Made by a program: the position numbers and the translations under genes
Assembly (NCBI GenBank): GCA_016181175.1
Contig: JACOZV010000004.1
Coordinates: 7,718-71,717, forward strand
Source: Candidatus Yanofskybacteria bacterium
GTDB lineage: Bacteria > Patescibacteriota > Minisyncoccia > 2-02-FULL-40-12 > IGHO2-01-FULL-4-A
Length of the DNA: 64,000 bases
Reading direction: 5' to 3'
Notes under the pieces: model-generated
What the model saw: the letters and a program-made list of their open reading frames with translations, nothing else
What the model was told of the DNA's origin: nothing
Database searches by the model: none
Shown: piece by piece, positions 6,985 through 64,000 of the stretch
Layout: the number at the start of each line of letters is the position of its first letter
How positions within the stretch are numbered: the stretch's first letter is position 1

Positions 6985-7003
6985 AGTTAAAATTGATAGC
7001 CTA

Positions 7004-7903: not shown

Positions 7904-7930
7904 TTTTGTTCAGAAGTAATCTATCTGACT

Positions 7931-9730: not shown

Positions 9731-9746
9731 TTGCTAATTTTAACAC

Positions 9747-9773
9747 AAAACCGCCGCAAAAGCGGCGGTTTTA
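9747..9773. terminator. bidirectional terminator hairpin aaaaccgccgc-aaaa-gcggcggtttt
   Basis: Perfect stem flanked by A- and T-runs. Confidence 0.7.
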
Positions 9774-9790
9774 TCAACAAATTTAAAATT

Positions 9791-10237
9791 TTACTTATTT
9801 CCTATGCTTATAGGGGCTACTTCTACAATTTTATTGTTATCCGGGTCATAGAGGATGGCTTTTTTAGCATTGGCATACAGCAAAAGCTTGTCGCCCTTTT
9901 TTGCTTTCACGAAGAATTGCTGGTCTTTTAATTTTTCCGGATCTGAAACAGTGGCAACAGTCGGCGTTTCTCCTTCGGGCAATATGATAAGTTTGGAAAT
10001 TTGAGCAACCAACTTGGCTGTTTCTTCCCTGACGATCTTGTTTGGATCTTCTTTTAGCACGGCTGCTTCATTGTAAAAATAAAACGCTAAACCGCTTGTC
10101 GTAAGCGCAAGAAAAACCAAAATGGGAATCAAATGTTTTTTACGCTTGGGTGGTGTTTGAACGGCTAAATCTGTACCTAAGCCTTCGTTATTCATTTCTT
10201 CCTCTACTACAACTTCATTATTTATATGTTTACTCAT
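9791..10237 (-). CDS. hypothetical membrane-anchored protein
   Basis: A charged N-terminus, one TM helix (LIPILVFLALTTSGLAFYFY), then a soluble domain. Confidence 0.55.
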   Translation of the reverse strand: MSKHINNEVVVEEEMNNEGLGTDLAVQTPPKRKKHLIPILVFLALTTSGLAFYFYNEAAVLKEDPNKIVREETAKLVAQISKLIILPEGETPTVATVSDPEKLKDQQFFVKAKKGDKLLLYANAKKAILYDPDNNKIVEVAPISIGNK

Positions 10238-10296
10238 ATCAATATACTACTTAACTAATTTTTAACTTTCAAGACGACTGTGGATAACTTCTGCTT

Positions 10297-12393: not shown

Positions 12394-13303
12394 GACCGCG
12401 CGTCATTACGCAAAGAAGGTACGGATTTTTAGGGTAATATACGATACCGCAATCATGGAGTTGTTTTATGCCACCCTCAAACCCGGTTCGCTCCCCGAAT
12501 TTATGCGCTACCGAAATTTCGGGGGGAACCCCAGCTACAATACCAATATTAAAATCTGTATTTGCCAGAAATTCTAATGTCTTTTCTGAAGTTTCTTTAT
12601 TCCTAAAAAATGATGCGTGGTAAAGCTGAATAAATATTGAGGAGTATGATTTTACGCTTATTACTTCGTCACGCTCTCCTCTTGGACTGACAATGCCCAA
12701 ATCTTGAATCGTTTCAGTAAAAACATCTGTATTTGGATAGGCCTGAATTAAATATTTAGTCAAAACAATGTATGCCTTATTGTCAGAATATTTAATCAGA
12801 CGCTTAAGCAAATCGTTTACAGAATAAGATTCATTTTCTTGAATTGATTCTTTTGGAGAAATTAATTGCTCAAAAATCACTTCTTTTGTCGTATGGTATG
12901 TTAATTTTTTTTCGAGCAACTCTGGTTTGTCCTCGGCAAAATTTAAATAGGTTATAAGCAGGGGCACCTTAAGTAAGCTGGCCGGGGCAAAAACGGCATG
13001 GTCATCAATACCCAGTGTCGGACCGCTCACAAGGTCTCTAAAATAAATGGACACATTAGTAATTTCTTTCTCTTTTATTTTAGAATCAATGAATTCTTCA
13101 ATCCTGCTCTTTAAGTCAGCATAAGCATGTTTTTTTATAACAAAAGAGTTATCGCAAGCCAGTTCTTTATTAATAAATTTAAACCTAGATTGATTACAAA
13201 AAAGATTAATATCAATAATATTAAATTTGTTTGCCAAAAATCCTCCTCCAAAAAGAATGAAAATAATAAGAAGGGTATTTGAAAACCTAAACCCAAAAAG
13301 CAT
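12314..13303 (-). CDS. class A beta-lactamase-like serine hydrolase (PBP fold)
   Basis: SxxK (PASLLKVP), SDN (YSDNKAY) and a degenerate KTG-like box (HKFGERTG), after an N-terminal TM/signal segment. Confidence 0.55.
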   Translation of the reverse strand: MLFGFRFSNTLLIIFILFGGGFLANKFNIIDINLFCNQSRFKFINKELACDNSFVIKKHAYADLKSRIEEFIDSKIKEKEITNVSIYFRDLVSGPTLGIDDHAVFAPASLLKVPLLITYLNFAEDKPELLEKKLTYHTTKEVIFEQLISPKESIQENESYSVNDLLKRLIKYSDNKAYIVLTKYLIQAYPNTDVFTETIQDLGIVSPRGERDEVISVKSYSSIFIQLYHASFFRNKETSEKTLEFLANTDFNIGIVAGVPPEISVAHKFGERTGFEGGIKQLHDCGIVYYPKNPYLLCVMTRGHDIEKLSNVIGAISKMFYEEFDSRRL

Positions 13304-13339
13304 CTTTTCAGTTTAAACTAAAATAAGAGTTTTTCAAAT

Positions 13340-15337
13340 TTAAGTGTCCGGTGAAGTTTCCGAAAGCGGAGATTCTTCTGACGGAGGCGGCTCTGGCGTT
13401 GCTTGCGGTAAGCTTGTTGAATCCGGTTCAGGAGTTGGCTCTTCCACTGGAGGTTGAACCTCTACTTGAGGTTCAACCTCGGCGGATGGCGTAGGTTCCG
13501 GAGGTGGCGATTCTTCTATTATTGGCTCCGCCGTGGACTCTTCGGATACGGATGGTTCTGATTCTGAAGTCGGTTCTATGCTCGACTCCGGAGTTGCCAA
13601 AGATTCGTAATCTTTTGAAGGAATTGGCGTCGGTTCTGGCTGTGAATTATTGAGGATACTCGGAATAACCGAACACTCACCCGGTATGTGAACCAGTTGT
13701 CCCCTTGTCATTCTTACGCAATACGGCTCCCCTGTTTCGGTATCATAAAACGTAATGCCGTTTGGCCGGTCTCGACTCCCTATGGTTAGCGAGTCGGCTT
13801 TAAGCGCCCCTGAGAAAAACGCATTACCTAAACTGTCAAAGGTAATTACCGGCGGACCAGTGCCTCGCCCCAAGCTTGAAGGACCAAATGAAGTAGAGAA
13901 TGAATCTGAAGCAACATTGAAAATACTAAATACGCCGCCATTGGCCAATTTAAACCCGACATCATCATCCACCGGCTCAATGATGTTCACGACCAGCGTA
14001 TCAGTTAAGACCCGCGGTGAAATAATTTCCAATCCGGCTATTATTCTATCAGTATATATTTCCGACAAAGATGTGCTGGCTGTTATTTCCTGCTTGTGAC
14101 TTAACATCTGGGCCAGTACCAGGCGCCCGATATCAATATCTTCTGGTATCTCATCCATATTGACCCCATATTTGCCAAGAACCGACTTTGTCCTGGCTCC
14201 GGTAGAATATGTTGTGGAAATGAACATTAAGATTTTACCTTGGTCTTCAGGAAAACCATCAGATTGGCTAGCAACACTGACGTCAAAATCTTCCAATGCC
14301 GAACCAATTATTAATCCCGCTTTATCAGTCCTTACTGCGACACCCGGAACATCGGATGCGGTAAGCAAATCGCCTTTTTTAATTTCACCATTTGCAGTTG
14401 AAACCTTAACAAGCGCCGTTCCCGACAAAGCTACGGGTTGGGTATCCGACGGCCTTTGGTCGTTCAGGTCTTTATTCATTATTTGAAATGGATCAGTAGA
14501 GATAACCCCAACTACACGGTCTTCAGGGGTTGCTTTTTTAAGAACTGCTGTTTTCTGGAGACCTTGTTTTGAGTCATATGAGGTGTCATTGGGGCCTACA
14601 GCCACCACATCACCGGGCTCTACACCATCTTCAACCACGAAATATTCTGCCAAGTCGGAACCATTGGTACCCGAAAGAGCCCAGACGATAACTGCACCGG
14701 CTGCTCCGGCGGCACCTTTTCCAAGGTTTGCAGAACCACCGCCTCCAGCGCCACCTGGAGCTGCTCCGATTGTTCCATTGCCATTATGAGCTGAGCCAGC
14801 CCCCGAACCCCCGCCGCCACCCGCACCACCCATCGGACTTCCTCCACCATCGCCGCCACCGGCGCCGGCAACTGCGGCAAAACCTGAACCGCCATTGCTT
14901 CCGCTTAGATTTAAGGTACCGCCAATTGCACTCCCCCCCACACCACCAACACCATTGGCAAGTCCTAATCCCCCGCCATTACCTTGAATATTAGCCCCAC
15001 CATTAAGTGCGCCTGTAAATCTGCTTAAATTTCCAACAACTCCGACGGTGCCACCGGTACCAACAACGATAGACACATTTCCGTTGACAGCCGTTATTCC
15101 CGCACTATACCCACCACCACCACCACCACCACCACCGTTTATCGCCGCAGCATTATTTCCACCAGCACCGCCGCCCCATACTTCCACATAAACCTGATTA
15201 ACATACGCCTGTTTAACCCAATTGCCATTAGCAGTGAAGGCGTTTATAGCTTCAATACCAAATCCCGCATCACCGCTACCAGCAGAGGTATCATCATCAC
15301 CACACGAAAATTTTCCTGTTGTTATATCCCAACCCAA
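13340..15337 (-). CDS. glycine-rich tail-fibre-like protein, C-terminal segment (frame C), with Pro/Glu/Ser-rich tail
   Basis: ORF call; the 'start' is a TTG artefact. This frame stays open upstream to about 15495 (PDPGFNFDSSLYIFDISKGLHALAALTSVGSASFNGG...). It contains long GGxGG tracts. Confidence 0.55.
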   Translation of the reverse strand: MGWDITTGKFSCGDDDTSAGSGDAGFGIEAINAFTANGNWVKQAYVNQVYVEVWGGGAGGNNAAAINGGGGGGGGGYSAGITAVNGNVSIVVGTGGTVGVVGNLSRFTGALNGGANIQGNGGGLGLANGVGGVGGSAIGGTLNLSGSNGGSGFAAVAGAGGGDGGGSPMGGAGGGGGSGAGSAHNGNGTIGAAPGGAGGGGSANLGKGAAGAAGAVIVWALSGTNGSDLAEYFVVEDGVEPGDVVAVGPNDTSYDSKQGLQKTAVLKKATPEDRVVGVISTDPFQIMNKDLNDQRPSDTQPVALSGTALVKVSTANGEIKKGDLLTASDVPGVAVRTDKAGLIIGSALEDFDVSVASQSDGFPEDQGKILMFISTTYSTGARTKSVLGKYGVNMDEIPEDIDIGRLVLAQMLSHKQEITASTSLSEIYTDRIIAGLEIISPRVLTDTLVVNIIEPVDDDVGFKLANGGVFSIFNVASDSFSTSFGPSSLGRGTGPPVITFDSLGNAFFSGALKADSLTIGSRDRPNGITFYDTETGEPYCVRMTRGQLVHIPGECSVIPSILNNSQPEPTPIPSKDYESLATPESSIEPTSESEPSVSEESTAEPIIEESPPPEPTPSAEVEPQVEVQPPVEEPTPEPDSTSLPQATPEPPPSEESPLSETSPDT

Positions 15338-49080: not shown

Positions 49081-50559
49081 TTACATTACCAACTTCCTAT
49101 ATGCCCCATCTAAAAAAGTGTCTATTGCTCTGATCTGATTATCTCTCCTTAAATCGAGGAGTGTTTTTATATCATCGTCGTCAAGCGCGATGATAAAACC
49201 TCGATCGTCGGACGCTGTATCTTTGCATCGTTGAATGAAGCGCGTCTTGTTGGTAAAACTCCTGCATATTAACAATCCGAATCTGCCACGATTAGTAGAA
49301 AACCTACCGGACAACTGGTCGAGTTCGGGGTTAGCCGGATCAGATGAGTAATTCTTACACTCAACAAAAATATAGCTTGATGGTACTCGCTTGTTCTGCG
49401 GTAATTCCCAAAAGAACCCTTTTTTTGCAGCGTTTTCGAAAACGATATCAACTTTCTTTCTCCTTTCATGTAGCGGCTGCTCCTTTTTCGGATTTATAAG
49501 AAACGGATAAAAAATGGCAGTGAGCGCCCCTTGAATATGGTTATGGAAATTGTCTGCGTCAGCATCACCAGTATCTATACGATCCAGTTCTGCTTTTAGA
49601 GCATCGAAGTCAAAAGCTGGGCGTGCACCTATAGCATCAATGTCTTCGTTACTAATTTCTTCGAGATTGTACTGTTTACTGTCGCGATATCGTCGCAAAA
49701 CTTCCGGATGATCTTTCGAAAAAGTGTAAAGAAATTGCTTCGAATGAGGGTGAAGTTCTTTGAGTGCCTTTTTTGTAGGCGGTCTACGCGTTCCATCTTT
49801 AAGCACCCTCACAAGGGCAGAGTTCGCGCTTAAATGCTCTTCCTGTAAAAAGTTTAGTACGAAATGCTGATAGTATTCCTGATGGCTAAACTCCAAACTA
49901 AAACGCGCAACTGCTTTAGGGACAAGTAAAACATTTCTATCATTACACACCGGAAGATTAACATACTCATTAGTCCATTCATTACGAACCGTATTCCAAA
50001 CAGTGCCGCTTGGTACGTTGTGCATTGTAATACCCCAAAATATACATTCGTTTTGGGTGTACTCGATTAACTTTCCGCGAATAATGTTAGTGGTCATGTC
50101 AGATATCTTGTCATGGCTGATGCCTTCGATAAGAAGTTCGCACTCTTCAAGATCTTTAAGAAACCCAGTTCTTACAGCCGAGCTTTCAGCCAACGCATCA
50201 TATAAATCGTTCGCCTGATCTCCTCCTACACCCCTACCTCTCGGGGATCCTCCAACAGACAAACCAAAACGAGTTTGATTCGGCTCTCGCAATCCTGAAA
50301 GCATGTATTTTGCGTCATCCTTTCTATCGGCTCTGATCAAGTCGATAACTCTTTGAAAAAAATTAACGATCTGATTGTGGCAATCGATTGACCACCTATC
50401 ATTCCGCTTTGAAAGAGCATAAGGATCAATAAACAAAGGAATATCCCCATTATTTATGGGAACATCGACAAAATCGAGTTCGTACTGGCTTTTACCAAGT
50501 CGGAAGTTCTCCGAAAAGGTTTCGTATCTTCTTGGTTGTTGTGTTCTTTGTCTTGGCAT
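49081..50559 (-). CDS. large hypothetical protein with a C-terminal PD-(D/E)xK-type nuclease motif
   Basis: ...KKVDIVFENAAKKGFFWELPQNKRVPSSYIFVECKNYS...GRFGLLICRSF fits D-x(n)-E-x-K with a downstream Q/R. No other recognisable domain. It is the last large gene of the type I R-M operon. Confidence 0.5.
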   Translation of the reverse strand: MPRQRTQQPRRYETFSENFRLGKSQYELDFVDVPINNGDIPLFIDPYALSKRNDRWSIDCHNQIVNFFQRVIDLIRADRKDDAKYMLSGLREPNQTRFGLSVGGSPRGRGVGGDQANDLYDALAESSAVRTGFLKDLEECELLIEGISHDKISDMTTNIIRGKLIEYTQNECIFWGITMHNVPSGTVWNTVRNEWTNEYVNLPVCNDRNVLLVPKAVARFSLEFSHQEYYQHFVLNFLQEEHLSANSALVRVLKDGTRRPPTKKALKELHPHSKQFLYTFSKDHPEVLRRYRDSKQYNLEEISNEDIDAIGARPAFDFDALKAELDRIDTGDADADNFHNHIQGALTAIFYPFLINPKKEQPLHERRKKVDIVFENAAKKGFFWELPQNKRVPSSYIFVECKNYSSDPANPELDQLSGRFSTNRGRFGLLICRSFTNKTRFIQRCKDTASDDRGFIIALDDDDIKTLLDLRRDNQIRAIDTFLDGAYRKLVM

Positions 50560-50567
50560 GGTTCATG

Positions 50568-52250
50568 CTATTTGATCAATTTCTTATTCCAGCCCTTTGA
50601 TTTGATGAACTTGAGCGTGCCTTCGATTTCGGCTTTCCTAAACTTGTTTGGTTTCCATGCTTGAATCTTGTCATTGATCGTTGTGAGATCGTCGCTTTTT
50701 GCATCCTGCACAACCTTGCAGACGGTTGCCAAGCACTCAATTTGAGCGCTGGTGGAGTTTTTAATTGCCGGCATAAGATCATTAAGGACGGACTCCATGT
50801 TGCTCAAGATTTTTGAGTTGTATTTGAAGAGTTTACCGGAGTTAGCGCCTAAACCATAGACGCCGTTTTTTTGCTGAAAGAAGCCATTGCGAGGACTTGC
50901 GCCGGCGGTGATGGCTTTCTTAATCTGTAGATCGTAGGGGCCGAAGTTCTGCGAGGTAAAGCTGAAGCCGAGCGGTACCCTGTAAACTTCCTGCGCGAGA
51001 TATAAGAGCTTCGCCACAACCATTTCACCACGTTCAAAACGTTGCAACACCGCTCCGATGGCTTGCCACACCGGAAAGACACTTGCTTTGACAGGAACAG
51101 CAGCCACGCCCTCTTTTACCAACTCACCAGCAAGCGCTTTTGACAAGGCGGAATCAAAAAGTTCCTTCAGCTTCTCTTTTTGAACGAGAAGTCCTTTTTT
51201 ATACTCTTTAATAGCACTAAACCTCTCGGCAATGGCATGCTGGTCTGTCGTTGGTGGTACCATGATTTTTATTTTTTTAAGTGCGGTAGAGTTTACTGCG
51301 GCTTGATTTACCCACGGCGTGCATAGATAACGAAATCTATCGGTTGAATATAAGTATTGAAGATATATAGAGAAGTAGCGCGGATCTAATACTTTTTCGT
51401 TTGTGCGAATCCGAGTGATGTGATTTGAAAAGACATACTTGTAATCCTTGTCTATGTAAACGCTTTTTCCAACTAAACTAATACTGTTTGTATTATTAAA
51501 TAGGACATCACCACTCTTCAGGAAATAAGTTTCCGCATGTGGGTAATCCTGTGGAATATACTTGATGCTATCAAAGTTCAAACTACCGTCATCGCCGATA
51601 TTATTAGGTCTGATTTGTCCAATACCCTTCCCAACCGGACGGAAGGCAAAACCATTCGTAACATCGACTACTAACGCACCGATCTTTTCTTCCTTCCAGC
51701 TTTTTGACGATGATCCAAAAATCTTATTCAAAAGCGACTGAAAAAGCTGATCTGTTTTTTCAATAAGCGCATCATTGAGTTTTTGGGCTTCGCGGATAGA
51801 ATCAACACGTTCTGCAATTGCTTGTTGGGTATTTAAAGACGGCATTGGTACTCGTAAATTTTCAAGGAAGGTTCTATTCAAATGTGGTACTGCCGCTCCT
51901 TGCGCTGCTGATCTAATTTTTTGCTGATTAAATTGCAAAAGGTAAGCAAGGTATCGACTTTCCAGTGTTTCGTTATGAACCACTTTAGCAATCGTGGAAC
52001 CAACAAATCCTCTTAAACCGATACCAACGGTGCCGGCATAAGCACCATCCCAAACCAATAAAACATCGTCATTGTCGCATCGAACTCCGTTATTTTCTGA
52101 AGTGTAAAGCGTATATTGACCACTTCTTAAATTTTCAATGCCAATATAAGGCAAGGTGTCCTTTGCGGCTTCTGCTGCGGAAATCATCATTTTACCTTTC
52201 GCAAAAGAAATAAGTTCGCCTAATTTTTTTGTTTGATAATTACTTTGCAT
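50568..52250 (-). CDS. hsdS: type I restriction-modification specificity subunit HsdS (two TRDs) with a 180-aa C-terminal Panacea/DUF4065-like extension
   Basis: The N-terminus and central conserved region are typical HsdS (LGELISFAKG...IGIENL...; central NTQQAIAERVDSIREAQKLNDALIEKTDQLFQSLLNKIFG; distal HAIAERFSAIKEYKKGLLVQKEKLKELFDSAL). After about aa 380 an extra domain carries KLLYLAQEVYRVPLGFSFTSQNFGPY. Confidence 0.75.
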   Translation of the reverse strand: MQSNYQTKKLGELISFAKGKMMISAAEAAKDTLPYIGIENLRSGQYTLYTSENNGVRCDNDDVLLVWDGAYAGTVGIGLRGFVGSTIAKVVHNETLESRYLAYLLQFNQQKIRSAAQGAAVPHLNRTFLENLRVPMPSLNTQQAIAERVDSIREAQKLNDALIEKTDQLFQSLLNKIFGSSSKSWKEEKIGALVVDVTNGFAFRPVGKGIGQIRPNNIGDDGSLNFDSIKYIPQDYPHAETYFLKSGDVLFNNTNSISLVGKSVYIDKDYKYVFSNHITRIRTNEKVLDPRYFSIYLQYLYSTDRFRYLCTPWVNQAAVNSTALKKIKIMVPPTTDQHAIAERFSAIKEYKKGLLVQKEKLKELFDSALSKALAGELVKEGVAAVPVKASVFPVWQAIGAVLQRFERGEMVVAKLLYLAQEVYRVPLGFSFTSQNFGPYDLQIKKAITAGASPRNGFFQQKNGVYGLGANSGKLFKYNSKILSNMESVLNDLMPAIKNSTSAQIECLATVCKVVQDAKSDDLTTINDKIQAWKPNKFRKAEIEGTLKFIKSKGWNKKLIK

Positions 52251-52869
52251 AAGAATGCGCAGAGTATTGAATTCTACCTACGCGGTTTAATAAGCGCGTA
52301 TCCCGAACTTTTAAGTTTTCACCATCTTTATCGAATGGCCTTATTTCTGCTTTCCAAATAGATCTACAAAAAACAGTGTTCTGATCATTCATATATGTAA
52401 TTTCTAAACATACTGGTATCGCAAATTCAGCCATTTCATACCATTCTCTAAAATTTTTTATGAGTTGAAGTTTGATTCTAAATGACTCATCCTCTGTGGT
52501 CTGATAGAGGGGCACCTTATGATATCTTTCTTCTGCGATGGGCATACCGGTCGCTTTGGGTTGGGAGATATTAAAAGCCGATCCGCGACCAGAATTGAAA
52601 CAGTCAAACTCTATGGAAAAAACTATTTCAAAATGATTCGCATCAGCACGGATTATGCTTCCGGCATCCATCACACCATATCCATGCTCTACTTCACTAT
52701 GTCTAACCCCAACCCATATTCTTAATGGACGCAAAATTAAGCTGGGTACTGTACTTAATGCAGAATTCCAATCTGCTTTTCTGATAGCTTTTATCGAAAT
52801 CCACAGTGAAACAACTGCGGTTATCCCGACTAAAATATCTGCCGTTTTAGAAATTATTTCAAAATTCAT
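52240..52869 (-). CDS. hypothetical protein with N-terminal TM helix, embedded between hsdM and hsdS
   Basis: MNFEIISKTADILVGITAVVSLWISIKAI... It overlaps the hsdS start by 11 nt and begins 7 nt after the hsdM stop. Confidence 0.5.
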   Translation of the reverse strand: MNFEIISKTADILVGITAVVSLWISIKAIRKADWNSALSTVPSLILRPLRIWVGVRHSEVEHGYGVMDAGSIIRADANHFEIVFSIEFDCFNSGRGSAFNISQPKATGMPIAEERYHKVPLYQTTEDESFRIKLQLIKNFREWYEMAEFAIPVCLEITYMNDQNTVFCRSIWKAEIRPFDKDGENLKVRDTRLLNRVGRIQYSAHSYAK

Positions 52870-52875
52870 AATCTT

Positions 52876-54405
52876 TTATCCCAGTTTATCTGTCATCTCT
52901 TCTTGTAATTTTGTTAGATCTTTATTGATTTTCTCAATTTCTTTCAAAATAATTTTTGGCTCGCGGTGTTTTATCTCTTCTCCGATAGCATATGGGTTAT
53001 AAGTGTTTGCAGAAAGTATGTAATCATTTTCGATGATTTCTTTAACTGGCGTAAACCATGCAAGCTGTTTTTCAACTGCGCGGTTTTTATGCCAGAGTTC
53101 CAACAGCTTCGGAATATCATTTCTATATTGGCTGCCGAATTTTTTGGATGCTGAAAGCGATGAACCATCACCTTGCATATCAAAGAACCATACCTTTGCA
53201 GATTCATCGAGTTTCGGCACCGCCTTTTTTTTGAACACCAAGAAGGACGTTTTTACGCCGGCATACGGCTGAAACACGCCTGCCGGCATGGAAACAACCG
53301 CCTGTAAGTCCGTATTTTCAAGTAGAAAACGGCGGATCTCTTTATCATCGCGGTTGGTACCAAAAAATGAACCTTCGGGAAGGATTATGCCGGCTCTGCC
53401 ATTGGGCTTGAGCGAGTTTATAACATGACCCAAAAATAGAACCTGTGTTTTGGTTGATTTGACCGGCAAGGTTGGTTTTATACGTTCCCGATCAACCTTT
53501 CCAGAGAATGGTGGATTTGTAAGGACAATATCGAATGTGCGCAGATCATCCTCATCTTCAGATCCAGCAACCGTGTCTTTGCGCTTAATGTTCGCACTCT
53601 CTATGCCATGTAATATCAAATTCATAAGTGCTAACCGCACCATCTCCGGATCAACATCAGAACCCAAAAAGGTTTTTTTGGTTAGAAATTCCCACTGTTT
53701 TTTATCGAGCTTATCTCCAAACCCCCTCTTGTGTCCATTTTCCTCTTCAATGCTTTTGGGATCGCTATTTCTTAATCGGATCCAATCATAGCCGGAGATG
53801 AGGAAGCCACCAGAACCACACGCAGGATCATAAACAGTTTCGCCAATTTTTGGATTCACCATTTCAACTATGACGCGAACGATATGACGCGGAGTGAGAA
53901 ATTGTCCAAGTTCGCCGGCTGATTCAATACTTGCAAGCAGCTCTTCATAAAGATCGCCCTTAACATCTGTGTCTAATCCTGTTAAATTGATCGTGTCAAT
54001 AATTTCAATCGTGTTTTTTAATGTAACAGAATGGGGAATTTCGAGCTTCGCATCATAAAAAATTTGCCGTATGTTAGAGTGTCCATTTTGCAATCGCTCC
54101 ACAAAGGGAAATACCTCATCACGAACAATTTTATACAATTCATCGCCAGCTTTTTCTTTCCAGCGCGACCATCGGAATTTTTCGTTTTTGCCCTCGAAAA
54201 TTGATTTATGTTTACGCCCAGTAAGTTCTTCGCCTCTCTCCATAGAAATATCCTGTTCCTCAAGCATTTTCAAAAAAAACAAAAAGCTAATCTGCTGGAT
54301 CCTTCTCACAGGGTCTCGTAAACCTGCACCCCAAAGATAATCGTTCAGGCGATCTAATTTTTGGCGAAACTCTATTCTTAATTGTTGTATTTTTTGTTCG
54401 GGCAT
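52876..54405 (-). CDS. hsdM: type I restriction-modification N6-adenine DNA methyltransferase subunit
   Basis: NPPFSGKV catalytic motif, AdoMet site DPACGSGGFL, HsdM N-terminal domain. Confidence 0.85.
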   Translation of the reverse strand: MPEQKIQQLRIEFRQKLDRLNDYLWGAGLRDPVRRIQQISFLFFLKMLEEQDISMERGEELTGRKHKSIFEGKNEKFRWSRWKEKAGDELYKIVRDEVFPFVERLQNGHSNIRQIFYDAKLEIPHSVTLKNTIEIIDTINLTGLDTDVKGDLYEELLASIESAGELGQFLTPRHIVRVIVEMVNPKIGETVYDPACGSGGFLISGYDWIRLRNSDPKSIEEENGHKRGFGDKLDKKQWEFLTKKTFLGSDVDPEMVRLALMNLILHGIESANIKRKDTVAGSEDEDDLRTFDIVLTNPPFSGKVDRERIKPTLPVKSTKTQVLFLGHVINSLKPNGRAGIILPEGSFFGTNRDDKEIRRFLLENTDLQAVVSMPAGVFQPYAGVKTSFLVFKKKAVPKLDESAKVWFFDMQGDGSSLSASKKFGSQYRNDIPKLLELWHKNRAVEKQLAWFTPVKEIIENDYILSANTYNPYAIGEEIKHREPKIILKEIEKINKDLTKLQEEMTDKLG

Positions 54406-54407
54406 AG

Positions 54408-56663
54408 TTATCGTGTACAGATCCTTTGGTTAAGCTCCGAGAGAGCGGATTGTAAAACACCTTCCTCAAACACTCGCAACGCATAATTAAGACCACCGAT
54501 TTGCCGGAAGATCGGCTCGTTGAATATGGAAATATCAACCGGCTCTTTGCGAACGATACATTGCGACTTTACCAAACGCAGGATTTTTATTTGATCGGAT
54601 GCAAAGTTTTTCTCGATTAGCCATGATTCAAAAAGCTGATTTACACGCTGCTCATGTAGTTGCTCTTCTGTAGGGAACTCCTTTGTTTTGAGTGCTGCTT
54701 GTATGAAGTCATTGAGCGTGCCTACCGGATAGCGATATGCTTCTCGCAAGTTTGCTTCGTTAAAATAGAACTCCGGAGAATTAAGTTTTTCGGAAAGGAA
54801 GGCGGTTTCGTCATTTGAAAGATCTTCGCCTTGTTTAACTTTTGAAATAAGCGGCTCGGTTTTAGCCATCTCTTGAACTTGCTGCTCCCATGCCACCTGA
54901 TAATCATCGGCATCAATTCTTTCGCCTTCTGCTCCAACTTCGATATGCGCACGCTGCATAACCACGTCCATGTTTTCGGGTGCTGTTTCCGGCACTTGAA
55001 CAAAAAGTCGCTTCACCACTTCTTCCTCTTCCTGCGTTAAATCTTCAGCTTCGGTTCCCCACGGAATACCAGCTTTAATTTTTGCATAGGCAGAATACGG
55101 ATCAAATCCTTCGTCATTGAAGTAACGAGTAACGCCAGCAAAGTCATAAATACGAAAAGATGTTTTGCTGATTTTTTGATATAATCGGCTGCCACGTCCT
55201 CGCATCTGTTGGTAAAGGATCGGGGAACGTGTAGGACGCGCCATGATCAAGTTTTCTACCATTGGGACATCGATGCCGGTATCCATCATACCCACCGAAA
55301 CCGCTACCATCGGCATTTCTTGGTGCTTAAAACGTCTTATGGCTCCACGAGGATCTTCGGTATCGGAAGTAATAACTTCAGCGTATCTTCCCTTATATTC
55401 CGGATATGTCTGATTGAGATAATACGCCAATTGCGCAGCGTGTTTTTTCGTAACAGCATAAAGAATGGTTTTGCGATGGTGTTTTGGTTCATGCTTTTCT
55501 TCTTCCTCTCTGAATGTTTTTGCCAATTGCTCGTTTCTTGCCGGCACATTGATTTTTCTCTCCAAATCTTCGGCGTTGTAATCTTCACCCTCAAATTGCA
55601 CACCTTCTAAAGACACTTTGGTGTCGATCTGTAAGATCTCATAACCAGCAAGAAATCCCTCTTTGATGCCTCGTCGAATACTGTATAGAAATGTCGGTTT
55701 ACCCTTTTTTTCACGCTCATCCCAACAACCAAAGAGCTTATAGGTGTTACGATCAATAAACACACTCGGCGTTGCTGTAAGACCTATCCGGATTGCGTCA
55801 AAATGCGATAGGACAGCGTTGTAGATGCCGAAGATGGATCTATGTGCTTCGTCCGAGATAACCACATCAAAATAACCACTTGTAAAATTCGATAGTTGCG
55901 AATAAAGAGTGGGAAGTGTCGAGATGATTATTGAGGATTCGTCTTTTTGCTTGCCTCCGTAAAGAAGCTTTGTAGGATAATCTTTCAAAATTTCATCAAA
56001 AACTTCCTTTGTTTGTATGCCTAAATCAATGCGATCAACAAGAAATAAAACACGCCGGATGAGATTCGCTTCAAACAGCCGTTTGAGATAAAGAGCTATG
56101 GTATCTGTCTTGCCAGTGCCGGTTGCCATAGCGATGAGCATTTTGCGCAAACCGCCCTCAATGGTTTTGTCCATGATCTGCATGGCCTCCTTTTGATATG
56201 GGCGTGGTGTGCGTAATTCGCCACCTTTAAAATAATTGTCGGGTACAGGAATGGCGGTTATCGGCTTTTGATCTATTCGTAGGGTTTGGATTTTTTCTAA
56301 ATCGCGTTGAGAAAAGAAGGTAATTACCTTTTGCTCTGGACGATATTTGTAATCCCAAAAATAAATATCCTCTCCATTGGAAAGGAAAATGAAATCGATA
56401 CCCAGCTCTTCTGCGTAGGTCAATGCCTGCTGTTTTGCCAATACTGGTTCAGTTGAAAACCGCTTTGCTTCGATAAGCCCGATGGCTCTGCCGCGTCTAT
56501 CCCTCAAGAAATAATCGGCACGTCCATCCTTCACCGGATCTTCGGTTGAAACTTGATTTTTATCCTCAATATCCCAGCCAGCTTCGCGGAGTTTGCGATC
56601 GATGACAATGCGAGCGTCCGTTTCTCTTGAGTTGTTATTGTTATTTGTCATATTCATTTTCAT
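54408..56663 (-). CDS. hsdR: type I restriction enzyme R subunit (short form: N-terminal PD-(D/E)xK nuclease + SF2 helicase)
   Basis: DYFL...IGLIEAKR nuclease core; MATGTGKT Walker A; DEAH box (VVISDEAH). Its stop overlaps the hsdM start (ATGA). Confidence 0.8.
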   Translation of the reverse strand: MKMNMTNNNNNSRETDARIVIDRKLREAGWDIEDKNQVSTEDPVKDGRADYFLRDRRGRAIGLIEAKRFSTEPVLAKQQALTYAEELGIDFIFLSNGEDIYFWDYKYRPEQKVITFFSQRDLEKIQTLRIDQKPITAIPVPDNYFKGGELRTPRPYQKEAMQIMDKTIEGGLRKMLIAMATGTGKTDTIALYLKRLFEANLIRRVLFLVDRIDLGIQTKEVFDEILKDYPTKLLYGGKQKDESSIIISTLPTLYSQLSNFTSGYFDVVISDEAHRSIFGIYNAVLSHFDAIRIGLTATPSVFIDRNTYKLFGCWDEREKKGKPTFLYSIRRGIKEGFLAGYEILQIDTKVSLEGVQFEGEDYNAEDLERKINVPARNEQLAKTFREEEEKHEPKHHRKTILYAVTKKHAAQLAYYLNQTYPEYKGRYAEVITSDTEDPRGAIRRFKHQEMPMVAVSVGMMDTGIDVPMVENLIMARPTRSPILYQQMRGRGSRLYQKISKTSFRIYDFAGVTRYFNDEGFDPYSAYAKIKAGIPWGTEAEDLTQEEEEVVKRLFVQVPETAPENMDVVMQRAHIEVGAEGERIDADDYQVAWEQQVQEMAKTEPLISKVKQGEDLSNDETAFLSEKLNSPEFYFNEANLREAYRYPVGTLNDFIQAALKTKEFPTEEQLHEQRVNQLFESWLIEKNFASDQIKILRLVKSQCIVRKEPVDISIFNEPIFRQIGGLNYALRVFEEGVLQSALSELNQRICTR

Positions 56664-56676
56664 TCTTGAGCTTGAT

Positions 56677-58476
56677 CTATAAATTCTCGTAATACCCCCT
56701 GATCTTTTTCGCCATGAGTTTGCGGCGTTCCTTCAAAAACCTTTCGTAATCCCCAAGCTCCATATTCTGAAAGCCATCCGGTATGCAATTCTGTTTTAGG
56801 TTCTCGGCGAGATCTTTTTTATCGGTTATGCCGCCATACTTGAGCTTGCCTCCTTCGGTTTGTTTCATTACTTCAGCCATGTACTCTTTGGGAGATTTTT
56901 TGCCGACTTTGATATTTATTTCAGATTGAGCATAAGTAAAGTTGCCAATCTGGTTGTAATCGCCCCTACTTAAGCCGCCTGCTTTCTTCAGGTATTCCTT
57001 TGGAAAGAGATGATGGATGTCGCCGCGATGACTGATCATATTACCAACGGTAATGTCGGTTGAAAGAAAGCCCCTGTCGTTATTTTTAACCTGTGCCGCA
57101 AAAAAAAGATTGAGAAATGGATTGCTGATGCTCGCCTTATCGAGTTCCTGAATAAGCTGCGCGTTCCAAAAAGCATCGGAGAGTTGCGCTTCTTCGATTG
57201 ATTTCAAAATCTCGCCAGCATCGCCATTGGAAATCTGCTTAATATCCGAATCAAATTGGCTTTCCGGTGATCCGGAATAACGTCCGGTGAGGATAGACAT
57301 CACAAACCAGCGTTGGACATACTTTTCGATCAAGCTTGGATCGACACTCTTATCGCGCAGCTTGAGATATAAAATATAGGCAAAGTTAAGAGCGTTTTGC
57401 GAATTGATAAGGTCGTTGCTTATAAAGCCGCAGGATTTGATGATCATTACAAACCGCTTGAAGTTTGTTTCATTTACAAAATCCAGTACCGCATCACGGA
57501 GTTTTTGGAAAGACGCATCCATTATGTCTTGCTCAAAACTGCGTGTTTCAAAGTTACGCCCCGAAAGCAGTCCGACAAGATCCGCCATCTTGCCTCGTTC
57601 AAATTGTTTGGTGAAACTCACACGCAACACATCGGAATAATCCGGATCGTAGAGGTCGTCATTTTCATCTTTAAGCCATGCAAGTTTTGAAAGGTAAACA
57701 GTTTTGTTAAACTCTGCATCATTTTCAGTTATGTGTTTGTAAAACTGCGGCTCGCGCGCAAGATGGCAAAAATAGTCGACACACTTTCTTAAATTAACGC
57801 CGAAATTATCCTCCTTGTCATAAGAAGCTATCTTCGACATGGCAAAGTCAGCTTGGCTTAATACAACACCTTTGGAATTGATACGGATAAAAATCTCGGT
57901 AACCGTTTCAATATCTAAACCGGCATCAAGTTCAATAAAACCAACCTGCTTGCTTTTGATCTGTAATAACTTCTCAATGTTCTTTTCAATGAGTTCACGA
58001 TTTACGTCAAGATTTTTGTCGCAATAGTCAGTTACATCTTTGAATAAGCCGCCGTCCTTACTCATAAGTTTTGAGATGTCAGCTATCCACGCCTTGTCCT
58101 TTTTTATTGCCGGTGTGAGTGTGGCAAATTCTTCTATGATGGGGTGAAATGCAATATAGATCCGTTCCTCCTTATAATCTTTATTGATAATGTTTTGACC
58201 GAGAATTGCCGCACGGAGAGCGGTAATGCGTTGCTGTCCGTCAATCAAGACCTTTTTGCCGTTGGAAATGGAGCCATCTTTAAGACGAACATCGGGGTTT
58301 TTCCATGCAATGATATAGCCGATCGGATAGCCACGATAAAGCGAATCCATCAGATCGCGCACCTTTGTCGAATCCCAAACAAACGGACGCTGGATTTCCG
58401 GTATAGCGATTTCCTTTTCCTGAACCCAATTCAGGATATTGCTCACAAAGTATTGATTGACTGTGTATTTTTGCAT
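56677..58476 (-). CDS. GmrSD-family type IV restriction enzyme (DUF262 ParB-like N domain + DUF1524 HNH-like C domain)
   Basis: IPEIQRPFVWDSTKVRDLMDSLYRGYPIGYII...LIDGQQRITAL is DUF262. The C-terminus GDIHHLFPKEYL is DUF1524. I take the start at MQKYTV (58476). The ORF call to 58638 reads through an HTH gene in another frame. Confidence 0.75.
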   Translation of the reverse strand: MQKYTVNQYFVSNILNWVQEKEIAIPEIQRPFVWDSTKVRDLMDSLYRGYPIGYIIAWKNPDVRLKDGSISNGKKVLIDGQQRITALRAAILGQNIINKDYKEERIYIAFHPIIEEFATLTPAIKKDKAWIADISKLMSKDGGLFKDVTDYCDKNLDVNRELIEKNIEKLLQIKSKQVGFIELDAGLDIETVTEIFIRINSKGVVLSQADFAMSKIASYDKEDNFGVNLRKCVDYFCHLAREPQFYKHITENDAEFNKTVYLSKLAWLKDENDDLYDPDYSDVLRVSFTKQFERGKMADLVGLLSGRNFETRSFEQDIMDASFQKLRDAVLDFVNETNFKRFVMIIKSCGFISNDLINSQNALNFAYILYLKLRDKSVDPSLIEKYVQRWFVMSILTGRYSGSPESQFDSDIKQISNGDAGEILKSIEEAQLSDAFWNAQLIQELDKASISNPFLNLFFAAQVKNNDRGFLSTDITVGNMISHRGDIHHLFPKEYLKKAGGLSRGDYNQIGNFTYAQSEINIKVGKKSPKEYMAEVMKQTEGGKLKYGGITDKKDLAENLKQNCIPDGFQNMELGDYERFLKERRKLMAKKIRGYYENL

Positions 58477-58477
58477 A

Positions 58478-58666
58478 TTACTTTTTTGGTTTCTTGATAT
58501 TCGATCGAGAACGAATAAACGCCTCGAGATCGCTCTCGCTGATCCGCCAATAGCCGACTTTGGTCGCCTTGAGCCGCCCACTCGAAATATAGCGATACAA
58601 GGATCGCTCGCTAACTCGCAAATACTTTGCCGCTTCACGTAATGTAAGAAATTTCTTTTTGGTCAT
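58478..58666 (-). CDS. excisionase/AlpA-family helix-turn-helix DNA-binding protein
   Basis: LTLREAAKYLRVSERSLYRYISSGRLKATKVGYWRISESDLEAF. It is the first gene of the defence operon. Confidence 0.65.
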   Translation of the reverse strand: MTKKKFLTLREAAKYLRVSERSLYRYISSGRLKATKVGYWRISESDLEAFIRSRSNIKKPKK

Positions 58667-59986: not shown

Positions 59987-60298
59987 ATGATATGGTCAAA
60001 GCAAGATACGCTTTGGCTTTTTTGTTTTCCCAAGCCAGCGCGGTCGGATGATATGAAGATACTAAATGAAAAAAACTTTTATCAAACTTCTGACTTTTGC
60101 CTCGCAACGGTTATTTCACTTTCTTTTCCGATAGAAGCAGTAGATCGGCAGAACACGCGAAAAGTTCAATTTATATTTCGTCGCAATAACGTCCTCGATA
60201 AGCTGATCGAGGATTTTTGGCGTGGTGAGATCCGAATTGATCCACAGCTTTTCTATAACCAATTACGAGTGATGAAAGCTCGGATTTACAACGACTAA
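59987..60298 (+). CDS. hypothetical protein
   Basis: ORF only. Confidence 0.35.
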   Translation: MIWSKQDTLWLFCFPKPARSDDMKILNEKNFYQTSDFCLATVISLSFPIEAVDRQNTRKVQFIFRRNNVLDKLIEDFWRGEIRIDPQLFYNQLRVMKARIYND

Positions 60299-60565: not shown

Positions 60566-62125
60566 ATGAAAAACATTTTTAGTGGTAACCACAAAAAAGG
60601 AAAGGTGTCCGACAAACTGAAGGGCGCGGAATTGGTTTTAGATGTGATCGAAAAAAGCGACTTATGGCTCTTTCACGATCAATTAAACGAGGCATACGCC
60701 GTTATAGCTGGTGATGGAGCATCAATAATGAAAATCGACTCGCAAAAGTTCCACAACTGGCTTTTTAATCATATCTATGACGAAACCGGAAAGATCAGCA
60801 ACACAGCCGCGTGCGAGGCAGCCATAAAGGTTCTGAAACATCAAGCAGAAACTGGGAATCTATTTGAGCTTGGAGTTAGGGTAAAACTGCGTGAGGGCGG
60901 TATTTGGTACGATCTCGGCGGTCAAAACTTTGTGAGTATCGCAGAAGATGGATGGTTGGTAACTGATCCTCCGCAACCAATCCTCTTTAAGAGGTTCGGG
61001 CATCAAAAAGAGCAGGTGCGACCGGAACGCGAGGGTAGCATGAATGAGTTTATGGAGCTTATTAACCTACAAGACAAAAAAGAATCTTTGCTCCTCATGG
61101 TTTACTTGGTTGCATCGTTTATTCCTAACTTTCCTCATCCTGTATTGATTGTGCATGGTTCGCAGGGGGCTGCTAAAAGTACCGCATGTAAATTGATTAA
61201 AGAATTAGTGGATCCATCTGCATTAGAAACTTCGACTATAAACGACGATAAAGACATAAAAGAATTGGTACAAGCCGCATCGCATCATTGGCTGTTAGTT
61301 CTCGATAATATCTCCTATATCTCCGAGAAAATCTCGGACACGATCTCACGAATATGTACCGGAGGCGGATTATCTAAAAGAATACATTATAGCAATGACG
61401 ACGACTTCATTTACAACTTTATGCACATAGTCGCCATTAACGGAATCCATCAGATCGTAAGCAAGCCCGATCTCCTCGATCGATCAATCTTGTTGGCGCT
61501 TGAACGCATCCCTGAAGATAAAAGGATAACGGAGGAGCAACTTTGGGGTCGTTTCAATGCAATGAAAGGAAGAGTTCTCGGCGCGGTTTTCGATGCCGTA
61601 TCCGGAGCATTGCGTGAATATCCGAATGTGCAGTTAGCAACATTGCCACGAATGGCGGACTTTGCACGCTGGGGATGCGCTATTGCGAGGACGCTCGGCT
61701 ACACCGACGAGGACTTTATGAATGTATACAAAACGAATATCGGAAGGCAGAACCAAGAGGCGCTTTCAGCAAGCGCCACAGCAGCAGTCATCATCAAGCT
61801 CATGGAAGATAATGATGTTTTCGAAGATACACCATCTGCTCTTTTGCGACTAATGGATCCGATAGCCGACGATCTCAAGGTAAAAGAAGCGAAGGATTAT
61901 CCACGACAGGCAAACTGGCTTTGGAGGCGCATTGAAGCGGTTATACCGAACCTTGCTGACGCCGGCATAAAGGTCGAGCAAACGAAAGATACTGAACGGA
62001 AGATAAAAATATCAAAGATATTGCGCGGTGATGACAGCACTGAAATTATGCCGTCTTCCGAAAAACCAGCAGAAGAACCTGCAAAAGACAGCATCGACAG
62101 CATAGACGGCACTTTCCCCCTGTAG
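60566..62125 (+). CDS. plasmid/phage replication-associated P-loop NTPase (primase-helicase C-terminal / D5-VirE-like)
   Basis: Walker A VLIVHGSQGAAKSTACKLI; Walker B WLLVLDNIS. The size and context are typical of replication proteins on integrative elements. Confidence 0.5.
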   Translation: MKNIFSGNHKKGKVSDKLKGAELVLDVIEKSDLWLFHDQLNEAYAVIAGDGASIMKIDSQKFHNWLFNHIYDETGKISNTAACEAAIKVLKHQAETGNLFELGVRVKLREGGIWYDLGGQNFVSIAEDGWLVTDPPQPILFKRFGHQKEQVRPEREGSMNEFMELINLQDKKESLLLMVYLVASFIPNFPHPVLIVHGSQGAAKSTACKLIKELVDPSALETSTINDDKDIKELVQAASHHWLLVLDNISYISEKISDTISRICTGGGLSKRIHYSNDDDFIYNFMHIVAINGIHQIVSKPDLLDRSILLALERIPEDKRITEEQLWGRFNAMKGRVLGAVFDAVSGALREYPNVQLATLPRMADFARWGCAIARTLGYTDEDFMNVYKTNIGRQNQEALSASATAAVIIKLMEDNDVFEDTPSALLRLMDPIADDLKVKEAKDYPRQANWLWRRIEAVIPNLADAGIKVEQTKDTERKIKISKILRGDDSTEIMPSSEKPAEEPAKDSIDSIDGTFPL

Positions 62126-62710: not shown

Positions 62711-62770
62711 CCGTGATTTTTTATTGGCTTCTGCCCTTAAGGGGGGCGGTGCCGGAAGCCAATCCTCACG
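62711..62770 (+). other. structured 5' leader of the recombinase gene
   Basis: ccgtga...tcacgg encloses ttggcttc...gaagccaa, two nested perfect stems. Confidence 0.35.
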
Positions 62771-62808
62771 GAAAAAGCGACTGGGGTACCACCGCTCCCT
62801 TTAAGTTT

Positions 62809-64000
62809 ATGAAAAACGAACAAAATACAACTAAAAATAAGGCGATTTCCTTTTGCCGCGTAAGCTCGAAGGAGCAAGCCGATGAGGGTTATTCGCTTGA
62901 ATCGCAGGAAAAGCTACTTGAGGCATACGCTACAGACGATAAACGAGATTTTAAGATCATCAAGATCTATAAGATCACGGAATCAGCGAGCGGAAAGCAG
63001 GTACGAAAGACATTTCAGGAAGCACTGAAATACGCCACTGATCAAAAAATAAAGATCATTCTGTGTGAAAAGATTGATCGATTAACACGCAACCTTAAAG
63101 ACGCCAGCACAATTGACGATTGGGTAAAGGATAAAGACACTACCGGTCGGCAGGTTCACTTTGTAAAGGAAAACTTTATTCTTAACGCTGATACAAAGGC
63201 ACACGATAACCTTGTGTGGGATATGAAGGTGGCTATTGCGCGTTTCTATTCAAACAATCTATCCGAAGAAGTGAAGAAGGGGCAAAAGGAAAAGATCGCG
63301 CAAGGATGGCTTCCTACGAAGCCGCCGCTTGGGTATCGCACGATCGGCGACAAAGGGCATAAAACGCACGAAATTGACGAGAAGATCGCCCCATATATCC
63401 GTAAGATGTTTGAGCTTTACGCTACCGGTAATTACTCAACGCTTTCTTTGGTAAGGGTTATGTACAAGGAAGGTTTGCGCAACCGCGAGGGTAAAAGGGT
63501 TGGAAAGAGTAGATTGCATCAATTGCTTTCGGATCCATTTTATTACGGCAAGATGCGATGGAAAGGCGAGGTTGTTAAAGCAGAACACGAACCCCTTATT
63601 CCGAAAGAATTGTTTGACGACGTTCAAAAAATACTTGTCCGGAAGATCAAATATCCCATGTATAGGAAACACCTCCCTATATTTAAGGCGATGCTGCGCT
63701 GCGGAGAGTGCAAAGGCACTGTTACGTGGGAAATACAAAAAAATCATTGGTACGCTCACTGTAGCCATTACCGAAACTGCAAGCAAAAAAAGTATGTCCG
63801 GCAGGAAGCTGTCGAAGAACAGCTTTTCCCATACTTTGATCGAGTTGCCCCGATAAACACGCGCTTGCTGCAGTGGCTTGAGAAGCAGCTTAAAGAAAGC
63901 CACACCGAAGAGATCAAATACAACACCTCAAAGCGAGAGGAGTTAAACCGGATCATCGCAACCGCCGATAGACGGATCGAGGCGGCGTATAAAGAGAAGC
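62809..64000 (+). CDS. large serine recombinase (resolvase catalytic domain + recombinase domain + zinc ribbon), 3'-truncated by the window end
   Basis: My own translation gives MKNEQNTTKNKAISFCRVSSKEQADEGYSLESQ... (catalytic Ser), then DPFYYGKMRWKGE and CGECKG...C. It is not in the ORF table because it has no stop within the window. Confidence 0.85.
   Translation, partial: MKNEQNTTKNKAISFCRVSSKEQADEGYSLESQEKLLEAYATDDKRDFKIIKIYKITESASGKQVRKTFQEALKYATDQKIKIILCEKIDRLTRNLKDASTIDDWVKDKDTTGRQVHFVKENFILNADTKAHDNLVWDMKVAIARFYSNNLSEEVKKGQKEKIAQGWLPTKPPLGYRTIGDKGHKTHEIDEKIAPYIRKMFELYATGNYSTLSLVRVMYKEGLRNREGKRVGKSRLHQLLSDPFYYGKMRWKGEVVKAEHEPLIPKELFDDVQKILVRKIKYPMYRKHLPIFKAMLRCGECKGTVTWEIQKNHWYAHCSHYRNCKQKKYVRQEAVEEQLFPYFDRVAPINTRLLQWLEKQLKESHTEEIKYNTSKREELNRIIATADRRIEAAYKEK

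Follow-up and report, generated by a model that had tools for sequence, protein, structure and literature searches.

A type I restriction-modification specificity subunit with a C-terminal domain related to that of DarG and, remotely, to Panacea antitoxins

A 64,000-nucleotide stretch of a Candidatus Yanofskybacteria genome (contig JACOZV010000004.1; hereafter the window) carries a type I restriction-modification (R-M) operon whose 560-residue specificity subunit, HsdS-ext, ends in an additional domain. This tethered domain of ∼175 residues very probably belongs to the superfamily that includes the C-terminal domain (CTD) of DarG, stand-alone YwgA-type proteins and, more distantly, SocA_Panacea/DUF4065, and we hold the fusion, with the same high confidence, to be genuine and recurrent. 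Much is known about type I R-M enzymes and about DarG/Panacea antitoxins. Their covalent fusion is not described in the open-access literature that we searched: no paper linking DUF4065 or Panacea to HsdS was found in full-text searches of open-access texts, which fits the view of a first-pass annotation of this DNA that the architecture was uncharacterized. Current domain libraries leave the fusion unannotated. Both component families are thus known, while the HsdS fusion and its distribution appear to be undescribed.

Compared with a canonical two-target-recognition-domain (two-TRD) subunit, residues 1 to 380 of HsdS-ext are a complete, ordinary HsdS within an ordinary hsdR-hsdM-hsdS operon. 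Pfam Methylase_S matches two stretches of the protein (E = 5.7e-34), showing that both TRDs are present, and residues 4 to 377 align with the full 392-position PADLOC Specificity_I profile (E = 4.8e-65). Since this profile aligns end to end with residues 4 to 377, ∼180 residues are surplus to a complete two-TRD HsdS, and the excess length claimed in the first-pass annotation is borne out by the open reading frame (ORF) and by both profile alignments. With its two TRDs, and encoded together with same-strand hsdM and hsdR genes, the protein is a genuine type I HsdS. The gene order on the minus strand is a GmrSD-like gene, hsdR, hsdM, orf209, hsdS-ext and, after 8 nucleotides, a DUF8370 gene (Table 1). 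What distinguishes HsdS-ext from the canonical subunit is an autonomous C-terminal domain of 175 residues, joined to the HsdS core by the linker VKEGVAAVPVKAS.

The extension is neither a third TRD nor a coiled-coil spacer, and its nearest characterized relative is DarG-CTD. Two DarG profiles match it through their C-terminal parts, that of PADLOC with an E value of 6.6e-11 over positions 170 to 326 of 329 (the C-terminal half) and that of NCBIfam with an E value of 6.8e-7 over positions 185 to 324 of 338 (the non-macrodomain part). The PADLOC profile is also matched by 32 of 34 domain-only relatives of the extension. An AlphaFold2 model of residues 385 to 560 (pLDDT 85, pTM 0.81) shows a winged-helix-like N-terminal half, starting with a helix-helix-helix-hairpin unit, and a helical C-terminal half. 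When this model was compared to solved structures with Foldseek, the only good match was 7YK3_D, the DarG-CTD, with TM-scores of 0.71 and 0.67 over the full length of both proteins, and the hits that followed were winged-helix regulators (PadR, MarR) with TM-scores of ∼0.3. The entry 7YK3 is cited as the M. tuberculosis DarT-DarG complex of Deep et al. 2023 in PMC13621843 and PMC12170906. Matches in the BFVD viral fold library were all of low TM-score and mostly unnamed.

The relationship to DarG can also be followed by sequence. A single-sequence search of the PDB with the extension gave no match, and a narrow A1 profile gave no significant match to 7YK3 (E = 1.1). The profile of the stand-alone sister clade, however, reaches 7YK3 with an E value of 3.6e-5 and aligns to the extension with an hhalign probability of 99.9% (E = 3.7e-31). 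In a tblastn search of 72,556 plasmids, the sole match of the extension was the C-terminal half of a macro-domain protein, which sits directly downstream of an annotated DarT. Lys414, Gly437, Glu505, and Lys533 are invariant or nearly so across the extension family in alignments of 135 and 34 sequences, and the motifs K, GPY, ELLA(S/T), and (K/R)W are common to the extension and M. tuberculosis DarG.

The first-pass annotation had recognized in the extension (50568-51113) the conserved core of Panacea antitoxins, quoting the peptide KLLYLAQEVYRVPLGFSFTSQNFGPY, which we locate at residues 414 to 439 (nucleotides 50934-51011). In a Pfam scan of the extension alone, a single family was retrieved, SocA_Panacea (PF13274), with positions 2 to 113 of its 113-position profile covered. 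The score of 16.0 to 16.4 bits (E = 0.018 to 0.024) is below the gathering threshold of 25.7 bits, and because it is under Pfam's own threshold we call the extension Panacea-like and not a member of PF13274. PF13274 is matched by 20 of the 34 domain-only relatives, with a best E value of 9.2e-4, and any other Pfam family by at most one; none of the 34 reaches the PF13274 gathering threshold. A bridge to bona fide PF13274 proteins was not obtained, as a search with the 34-sequence profile gave 21 proteins, none of them Pfam-annotated. DUF4065 proteins have been reported to be homologous to the DarT-inhibitor domain at the C terminus of DarG (PMC13621843). Judged from these sequence comparisons, the homology of the extension to Panacea/DUF4065 is real but remote: the likeness stands, with the whole model covered and most relatives matching, but a significant DUF4065 match does not.

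The fusion recurs widely. When 1.84 billion cluster representatives were searched exhaustively with HMMER and the extension profile, the domain was found in 225 clusters (50% identity), 113 of them at E ≤ 1e-10, and always at the extreme C terminus of its carrier. By profile score, the fused domains form a group of their own at E ≤ 1e-20, with stand-alone YwgA-type proteins at 1e-6 to 1e-9. Among the best 150 of the 225 matches, 89 are at least 500 residues long and 13 are of 330 to 499 residues. Methylase_S was detected on all 80 long members scanned, 7 of which are also touched, weakly, by Pfam Panacea. Inside type I operons, the fusion was observed on 25 independent contigs, and single-TRD half-HsdS variants carrying the extension (∼375 residues) also exist. 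The carriers are mainly Patescibacteria/Saccharibacteria metagenome-assembled genomes (MAGs), with a MAG labelled Gammaproteobacteria and cultured Chryseobacterium among the others; the RefSeq annotation of the Chryseobacterium fusion protein reads only "restriction endonuclease subunit S". Some database matches are fragmentary or frameshifted (P0004/L002) or cut by a contig end (P0185), as would be seen if the fusion were a misassembly, a miscall or a motif that had arisen by chance in a degenerate tail. Such an artefact is exceedingly improbable and we consider it ruled out by the uninterrupted ORF on many independent contigs and in cultured Chryseobacterium RefSeq genomes, by the confident fold and by the invariant residues.

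Triple fusions of 855 to 864 residues were also found, in which HsdM, a one-TRD HsdS, and the DarG-CTD-like domain form one protein, with hsdR directly downstream. In PADLOC, models PDLC03135, PDLC03184, PDLC03196, and PDLC03088 (Specificity_I) and PDLC03039 (MTase_I) match the isolated extension with E values down to 1.6e-32. Given these matches, unrecognized fusions must already be within reference R-M sets, and the models that absorbed the domain could mislabel its stand-alone relatives as R-M subunits.

We compared the gene neighbourhoods of 26 loci. Beside the window itself, these came from 2 look-ups, 4 genome contigs, and 19 metagenome contigs; among the metagenome contigs, L030 turned out to carry a stand-alone pair and not a fusion, and a single type I family predominates in the sample. 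By HsdM and HsdR identity, the loci fall into at least three families, which share at most 40% identity with one another (at most 39% for HsdM). Family A has the gene order M, S-ext, R, family B consists of L011 and L028, and family C is that of the window. Chryseobacterium represents a fourth family, with an HsdR of 1086 residues bearing a T1RH-like_C domain; the other HsdR architecture found with the extension is of the EcoEI_R_C type, with 750 to 820 residues. Between families the extension is 45 to 55% identical, compared to 29 to 40% for HsdM and HsdR, whereas within family A the mean identity is 63% for the extension, 73% for HsdM, and 75% for HsdR, so that here the extension diverges faster. 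Being better conserved between families than the catalytic subunits, the extension must be subject to selection and have some function, and the lack of co-divergence with these subunits points to a constrained but exchangeable module.

No toxin-like gene is conserved across the fusion loci. The recurrent genes are HsdM/S (26 loci), HsdR (24), a large serine recombinase (11), DUF5659 (10), and a few other mobile-element genes, with the start of hsdR usually 1 to 5 nucleotides past the stop codon of the extension. The genes appended to these operons vary by locus and include PDC-S18, PDC-S11, DRT UG13, Cas4-like nucleases, HARE-HTH+PDDEXK, an OLD-family protein, and some unknowns; L022, L026, and the Chryseobacterium locus L036 have no accessory gene. 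Loci L017 and L021 carry different appended genes even though their extensions are 86% identical and their HsdM and HsdR proteins 83 to 89% identical. Since the appended genes vary or are absent, even between near-identical loci, we regard them as independent defence-island cargo and not as cognate toxins. The variable accessory nucleases are disfavoured as partners both by this exchange and by their matches to stand-alone PADLOC defence candidates. Scans of operon and island ORFs with PADLOC or Pfam detected neither a DarT nor an HD gene. The expectation that the Panacea domain would neutralize an adjacent toxin, and would thereby link a toxin-antitoxin or abortive-infection switch to restriction, therefore found no support in the gene context, given the lack of a conserved toxin and, in three of three genomes, the occurrence of DUF8370 without HsdS. 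Likewise, the proposed survey of HsdS homologues recovered the same fusion in 225 clusters but no conserved toxin-like neighbour in the 26 loci. A DRT UG13b-type reverse transcriptase gene, apparently split into two ORFs, follows hsdR at L017 (6527-7932) and L019 (6816-8207), and an intact 502-residue RVT_1 gene follows hsdR at L001.

The DUF8370 protein encoded beside hsdS-ext matches PADLOC PDC-M36A (E = 2.1e-48) and phrog_27295 (E = 3.6e-105), and PF28123 was present on all DUF8370 homologues among the matches listed; the family has more than 2,987 members, mostly from Patescibacteria. It contains an invariant D371...E400-C-K402 nuclease signature, and its AlphaFold2 model (pLDDT 86) gave weak fold matches to FokI, Nt.BspD6I, Can2, and Cap4, all PD-(D/E)xK nucleases. 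Judging from its sequence, the protein is probably a stand-alone restriction-like nuclease; nothing on PDC-M36 was found in the open-access literature. In all three other genomes examined, DUF8370 homologues have no HsdS or Panacea-like gene nearby, lying instead next to a type II R-M system, next to a helix-turn-helix (HTH) gene, or amid unrelated genes. Because its homologues live without such neighbours, DUF8370 does not need an HsdS-tethered antitoxin. We rejected it as the cognate toxin on the basis of these contexts and of L028, where the gene at the equivalent position is unrelated (Cas4+RNase_H_2), and it most probably serves defence on its own and not as a cognate partner. The orphan orf209, co-transcribed with the operon as judged by its position, encodes a protein with a hydrophobic N-terminal segment and has no match in Pfam, NCBIfam, PADLOC, PHROGs, plasmids, viral contigs, or the other fusion loci. 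An unrelated gene of 133 residues occupies the orf209 position at L012, and L018 has a 63-residue gene between S-ext and R.

The closest precedent for the architecture is DarG itself. M. tuberculosis DarG (Rv0060) has the same C-terminal helical domain by sequence and by fold, and in both proteins this domain is C-terminal to a DNA-directed "protective" module. In DarG this module is a macrodomain with ADP-ribosyl glycohydrolase activity and in the window protein it is HsdS, which agrees with the DarG profiles aligning through their C-terminal parts alone; moreover, DarT is adjacent to DarG but absent from the operon and island ORFs scanned. DarG-CTD directly inhibits DarT (PMC13621843, PMC12170906). 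PanA and SocA (PF13274) share the core signature KL..LLY..Q ... GP with the extension and are known for direct toxin binding and promiscuous partner changes; PanA binds its toxin directly, as shown by pull-down, SocA acts as a ClpXP adaptor, and Panacea antitoxins swap toxin partners notoriously fast (Kurata et al. 2022, PMC8832971). These proteins have a bicistronic toxin partner, unlike the hsdS-ext loci, and the recurrent N-terminal partners of Panacea in the PanA survey were HTH and PAD1 only, with no HsdS (PMC8832971).

The nearest sequence relatives of the extension, stand-alone proteins named "YwgA" by JGI, have the same core motif but are free proteins of ∼180 residues, often acidic, encoded outside R-M operons and coupled to an upstream HD enzyme. 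In three of three cases, a protein of ∼435 residues with HD and HD_assoc_2 domains (dGTPase-like in PADLOC) is translationally coupled to the ∼180-residue YwgA-type protein. This looks like an uncharacterized toxin-antitoxin-like or defence pair, and the coupling implies that members of this branch of the superfamily do work together with an enzyme encoded beside them; the window operon has no HD gene. PADLOC PDC-M19A matches 13 of the 34 domain sequences, weakly, and nothing on YwgA was found in the open-access literature.

As the fusion has no constant companions other than HsdM and HsdR, the domain may act on the restriction complex itself. We tentatively propose, by analogy with DarG, that HsdR is gated by the tethered domain of its own system while M2S protects the DNA. 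In DarG, the enzymatic N-terminal part undoes DNA damage and the C-terminal domain physically restrains the toxin. In the R-M system, the M2S core would protect DNA through methylation and the appended domain would bind HsdR, the system's "toxin," thus gating or delaying restriction, which could be useful when the operon arrives, on its mobile element, in a host whose DNA is unmethylated. In a SocA-like sub-case, the domain would hand HsdR to a protease. What the data show is a recurrent fusion, the homology and fold of its extra domain, and no conserved toxin neighbour; protein binding by the extension, with HsdR as the bound protein, we infer from the characterized relatives, in which the domain directly binds and inhibits a partner enzyme, and by eliminating other partners. 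Several points weigh against this proposal. As HsdR works only in association with M2S, neutralization by binding would be less natural than it is for a free toxin. Divergence of the extension does not track that of HsdR or HsdM, two HsdR architectures are found alongside the extension, and co-occurrence with HsdR is trivially expected in any type I operon. In a wider formulation, which we regard as possible though doubtful, the extension is an antitoxin module hard-wired into HsdS, yielding a self-guarded type I enzyme that either restrains HsdR or keeps an unlinked or rapidly exchanged effector latent. The former would amount to a built-in "restriction alleviation," by which mobile elements could establish the operon in hosts new to it. 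In the latter, a phage anti-restriction protein, by breaking up the complex, would end the latency of the effector, a PrrC-like retaliation encoded in HsdS.

The PrrC anticodon nuclease is held latent by the EcoprrI type I enzyme, and in that system a type I R-M complex plays the "antitoxin" to an effector whose gene lies inside the hsd operon or beside it. With this conceptual precedent, the tethered domain could keep a separate toxic effector inactive on the complex, and phage disruption of the complex would free the effector and abort the infection. The DUF8370 nuclease, orf209, another accessory nuclease, or an unlinked gene could be that effector. The known role of the domain family, direct toxin neutralization with fast partner swapping (PMC8832971), would suit such a guard, as would the tightly linked, co-directional accessory gene, often a nuclease, of most complete fusion loci and the hydrophobic N-terminal segment of orf209, given that some PanT toxins are small membrane proteins (PMC8832971). 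We nevertheless consider it unlikely, as no accessory gene is conserved and three loci have none, L017 and L021 carry different ones next to nearly the same extension, those that are present match stand-alone defence candidates, DUF8370 homologues do without HsdS or Panacea-like neighbours in all three contexts, and orf209 has no relative in other fusion loci. The prr system combines a conserved, separate effector gene with an HsdS that has no extra domain, whereas the hsdS-ext loci combine a conserved domain with no conserved effector: orf209 and DUF8370 are locus specific, and accessory genes elsewhere are variable or absent.

A function without any toxin-antitoxin logic would be that of an auxiliary nucleic-acid-binding or assembly domain, which makes an extra non-specific DNA contact or contacts HsdM or a second HsdS. 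Its presence on half-HsdS and HsdM-HsdS fusions fits a role in the core enzyme, as does the lack of co-divergence with HsdR. The helix-helix-helix-hairpin unit is consistent with DNA binding, but the winged-helix regulators match at a TM-score of ∼0.3 compared to 0.71 for DarG-CTD. The fused domains are basic (isoelectric point of 9.8 for the window extension and above 8 for 73 of 80, against a mean of 6.6 for the stand-alone sister clade), but the HsdS core of the window protein, at 9.1, is equally basic and the charge may merely reflect proteome composition. Since no characterized member of the superfamily is known to act through DNA binding (PMC8832971, PMC13621843) and most type I enzymes function without such a domain, an auxiliary role is rather improbable. 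The same charge disfavours DNA mimicry, DarG-CTD being described as a mimic of single-stranded DNA, although this is a weak argument since the whole protein is basic. Finally, the domain could be a sensor or decoy that binds a conserved factor encoded elsewhere, such as a phage anti-restriction protein or a phage or host DarT-like or HD-type enzyme, and so protects the enzyme or signals attack. A ligand independent of the R-M subunits would predict both conservation and mobility, as seen in an extension that is better conserved than HsdM and HsdR and moves between four families and several phyla. This is very unlikely in our view, being purely inferential and with no candidate ligand identified: neither a DarT nor an HD gene turned up among the operon and island ORFs scanned, and the extension has no relatives in phage records or IMG/VR viral contigs, which also leaves a phage origin unsupported.

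Should the domain gate HsdR, it would offer a concrete handle on how type I systems borne by mobile elements spare the new host that they enter; should it guard an effector instead, layered defence would gain a new example. Either antitoxin version, if true, would be an undescribed coupling of toxin-antitoxin logic to restriction-modification. The question is directly testable in a cultured, tractable carrier, Chryseobacterium indologenes (WP_336703179.1).

Table 1. Features of the window and of related loci (window positions unless a locus is named)
Feature	Position	Strand	Remarks
hsdS-ext	50568..52250	-	560-aa specificity subunit with C-terminal extra domain; coordinates include the stop codon; from the ORF list
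HsdS core, residues 1-380	51111..52250	-	Two TRDs and conserved helices
C-terminal extension, residues 385-560	50571..51098	-	DarG-CTD/YwgA/Panacea-superfamily domain
Core motif K414-LLYLAQEVYRVPLGFSFTSQNF-G437-P-Y	50934..51011	-	Holds Lys414 and Gly437, invariant or nearly so (alignments of 135 and 34 sequences)
hsdM	52876..54405	-	509-aa methyltransferase subunit, same operon; Pfam N6_Mtase (E = 1.1e-61) and HsdM_N
hsdR	54408..56663	-	751-aa restriction/translocase subunit; Pfam ResIII, Helicase_C, HSDR_N, EcoEI_R_C-type C terminus
orf209	52240..52869	-	209-aa orphan ORF separating hsdM from hsdS; 11-nt overlap with the hsdS start
DUF8370 (PF28123)/PDC-M36A/phrog_27295 gene	49081..50559	-	492 aa, 8 nt downstream of hsdS-ext; predicted PD-(D/E)xK nuclease
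GmrSD_N-family gene	56677-58638	-	Type IV restriction-like, PADLOC HEC-05; 13 nt upstream of hsdR
DUF5659 small protein	59987-60298	+	Recurs in 10 loci
519-aa ORF	60566-62125	+	Island
Large serine recombinase	62713-64000	+	Runs off the window; recurs beside the fusion in 11 loci
Triple fusions	L008 7937-10531; L014 205-2772; L024 5937-8531		HsdM, one-TRD HsdS and extension
HD/YwgA-type pairs	L033 501-2374; L034 2-1700; L030 2-1098		
Accessory genes, L028			Cas4+RNase_H_2, overlapping the S-ext stop codon
Accessory genes, L011			HARE-HTH+PDDEXK_5
Accessory genes, L012			PDDEXK_1
Accessory genes, L009, L010, L015, L023			NucS-like PDC-S18 and PDC-S11
Accessory genes, L017, L019			DRT UG13

The R-M cassette lies on a region resembling an integrative element, at ∼48.5 to 64 kb of the window. 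Its boundaries were not found, with no tRNA at the border and no convincing direct repeats of att sites. The true start of the GmrSD gene is probably the methionine of MQKYTV..., because the ∼54 residues added by the listed GTG start look non-coding, and at L031 a GmrSD gene follows an extension-bearing fragment. Elsewhere in the window, very large ORFs on the minus strand at 3289-15337 (1231, 299, 599, 698, 329, and 665 residues) encode proteins with signal-peptide-like N termini that are probably cell-surface proteins. The GC content rises locally to 0.50 at 14 to 16 kb, and a cluster of tRNA genes (Trp, Thr, Tyr, Thr) lies at 123-1217.

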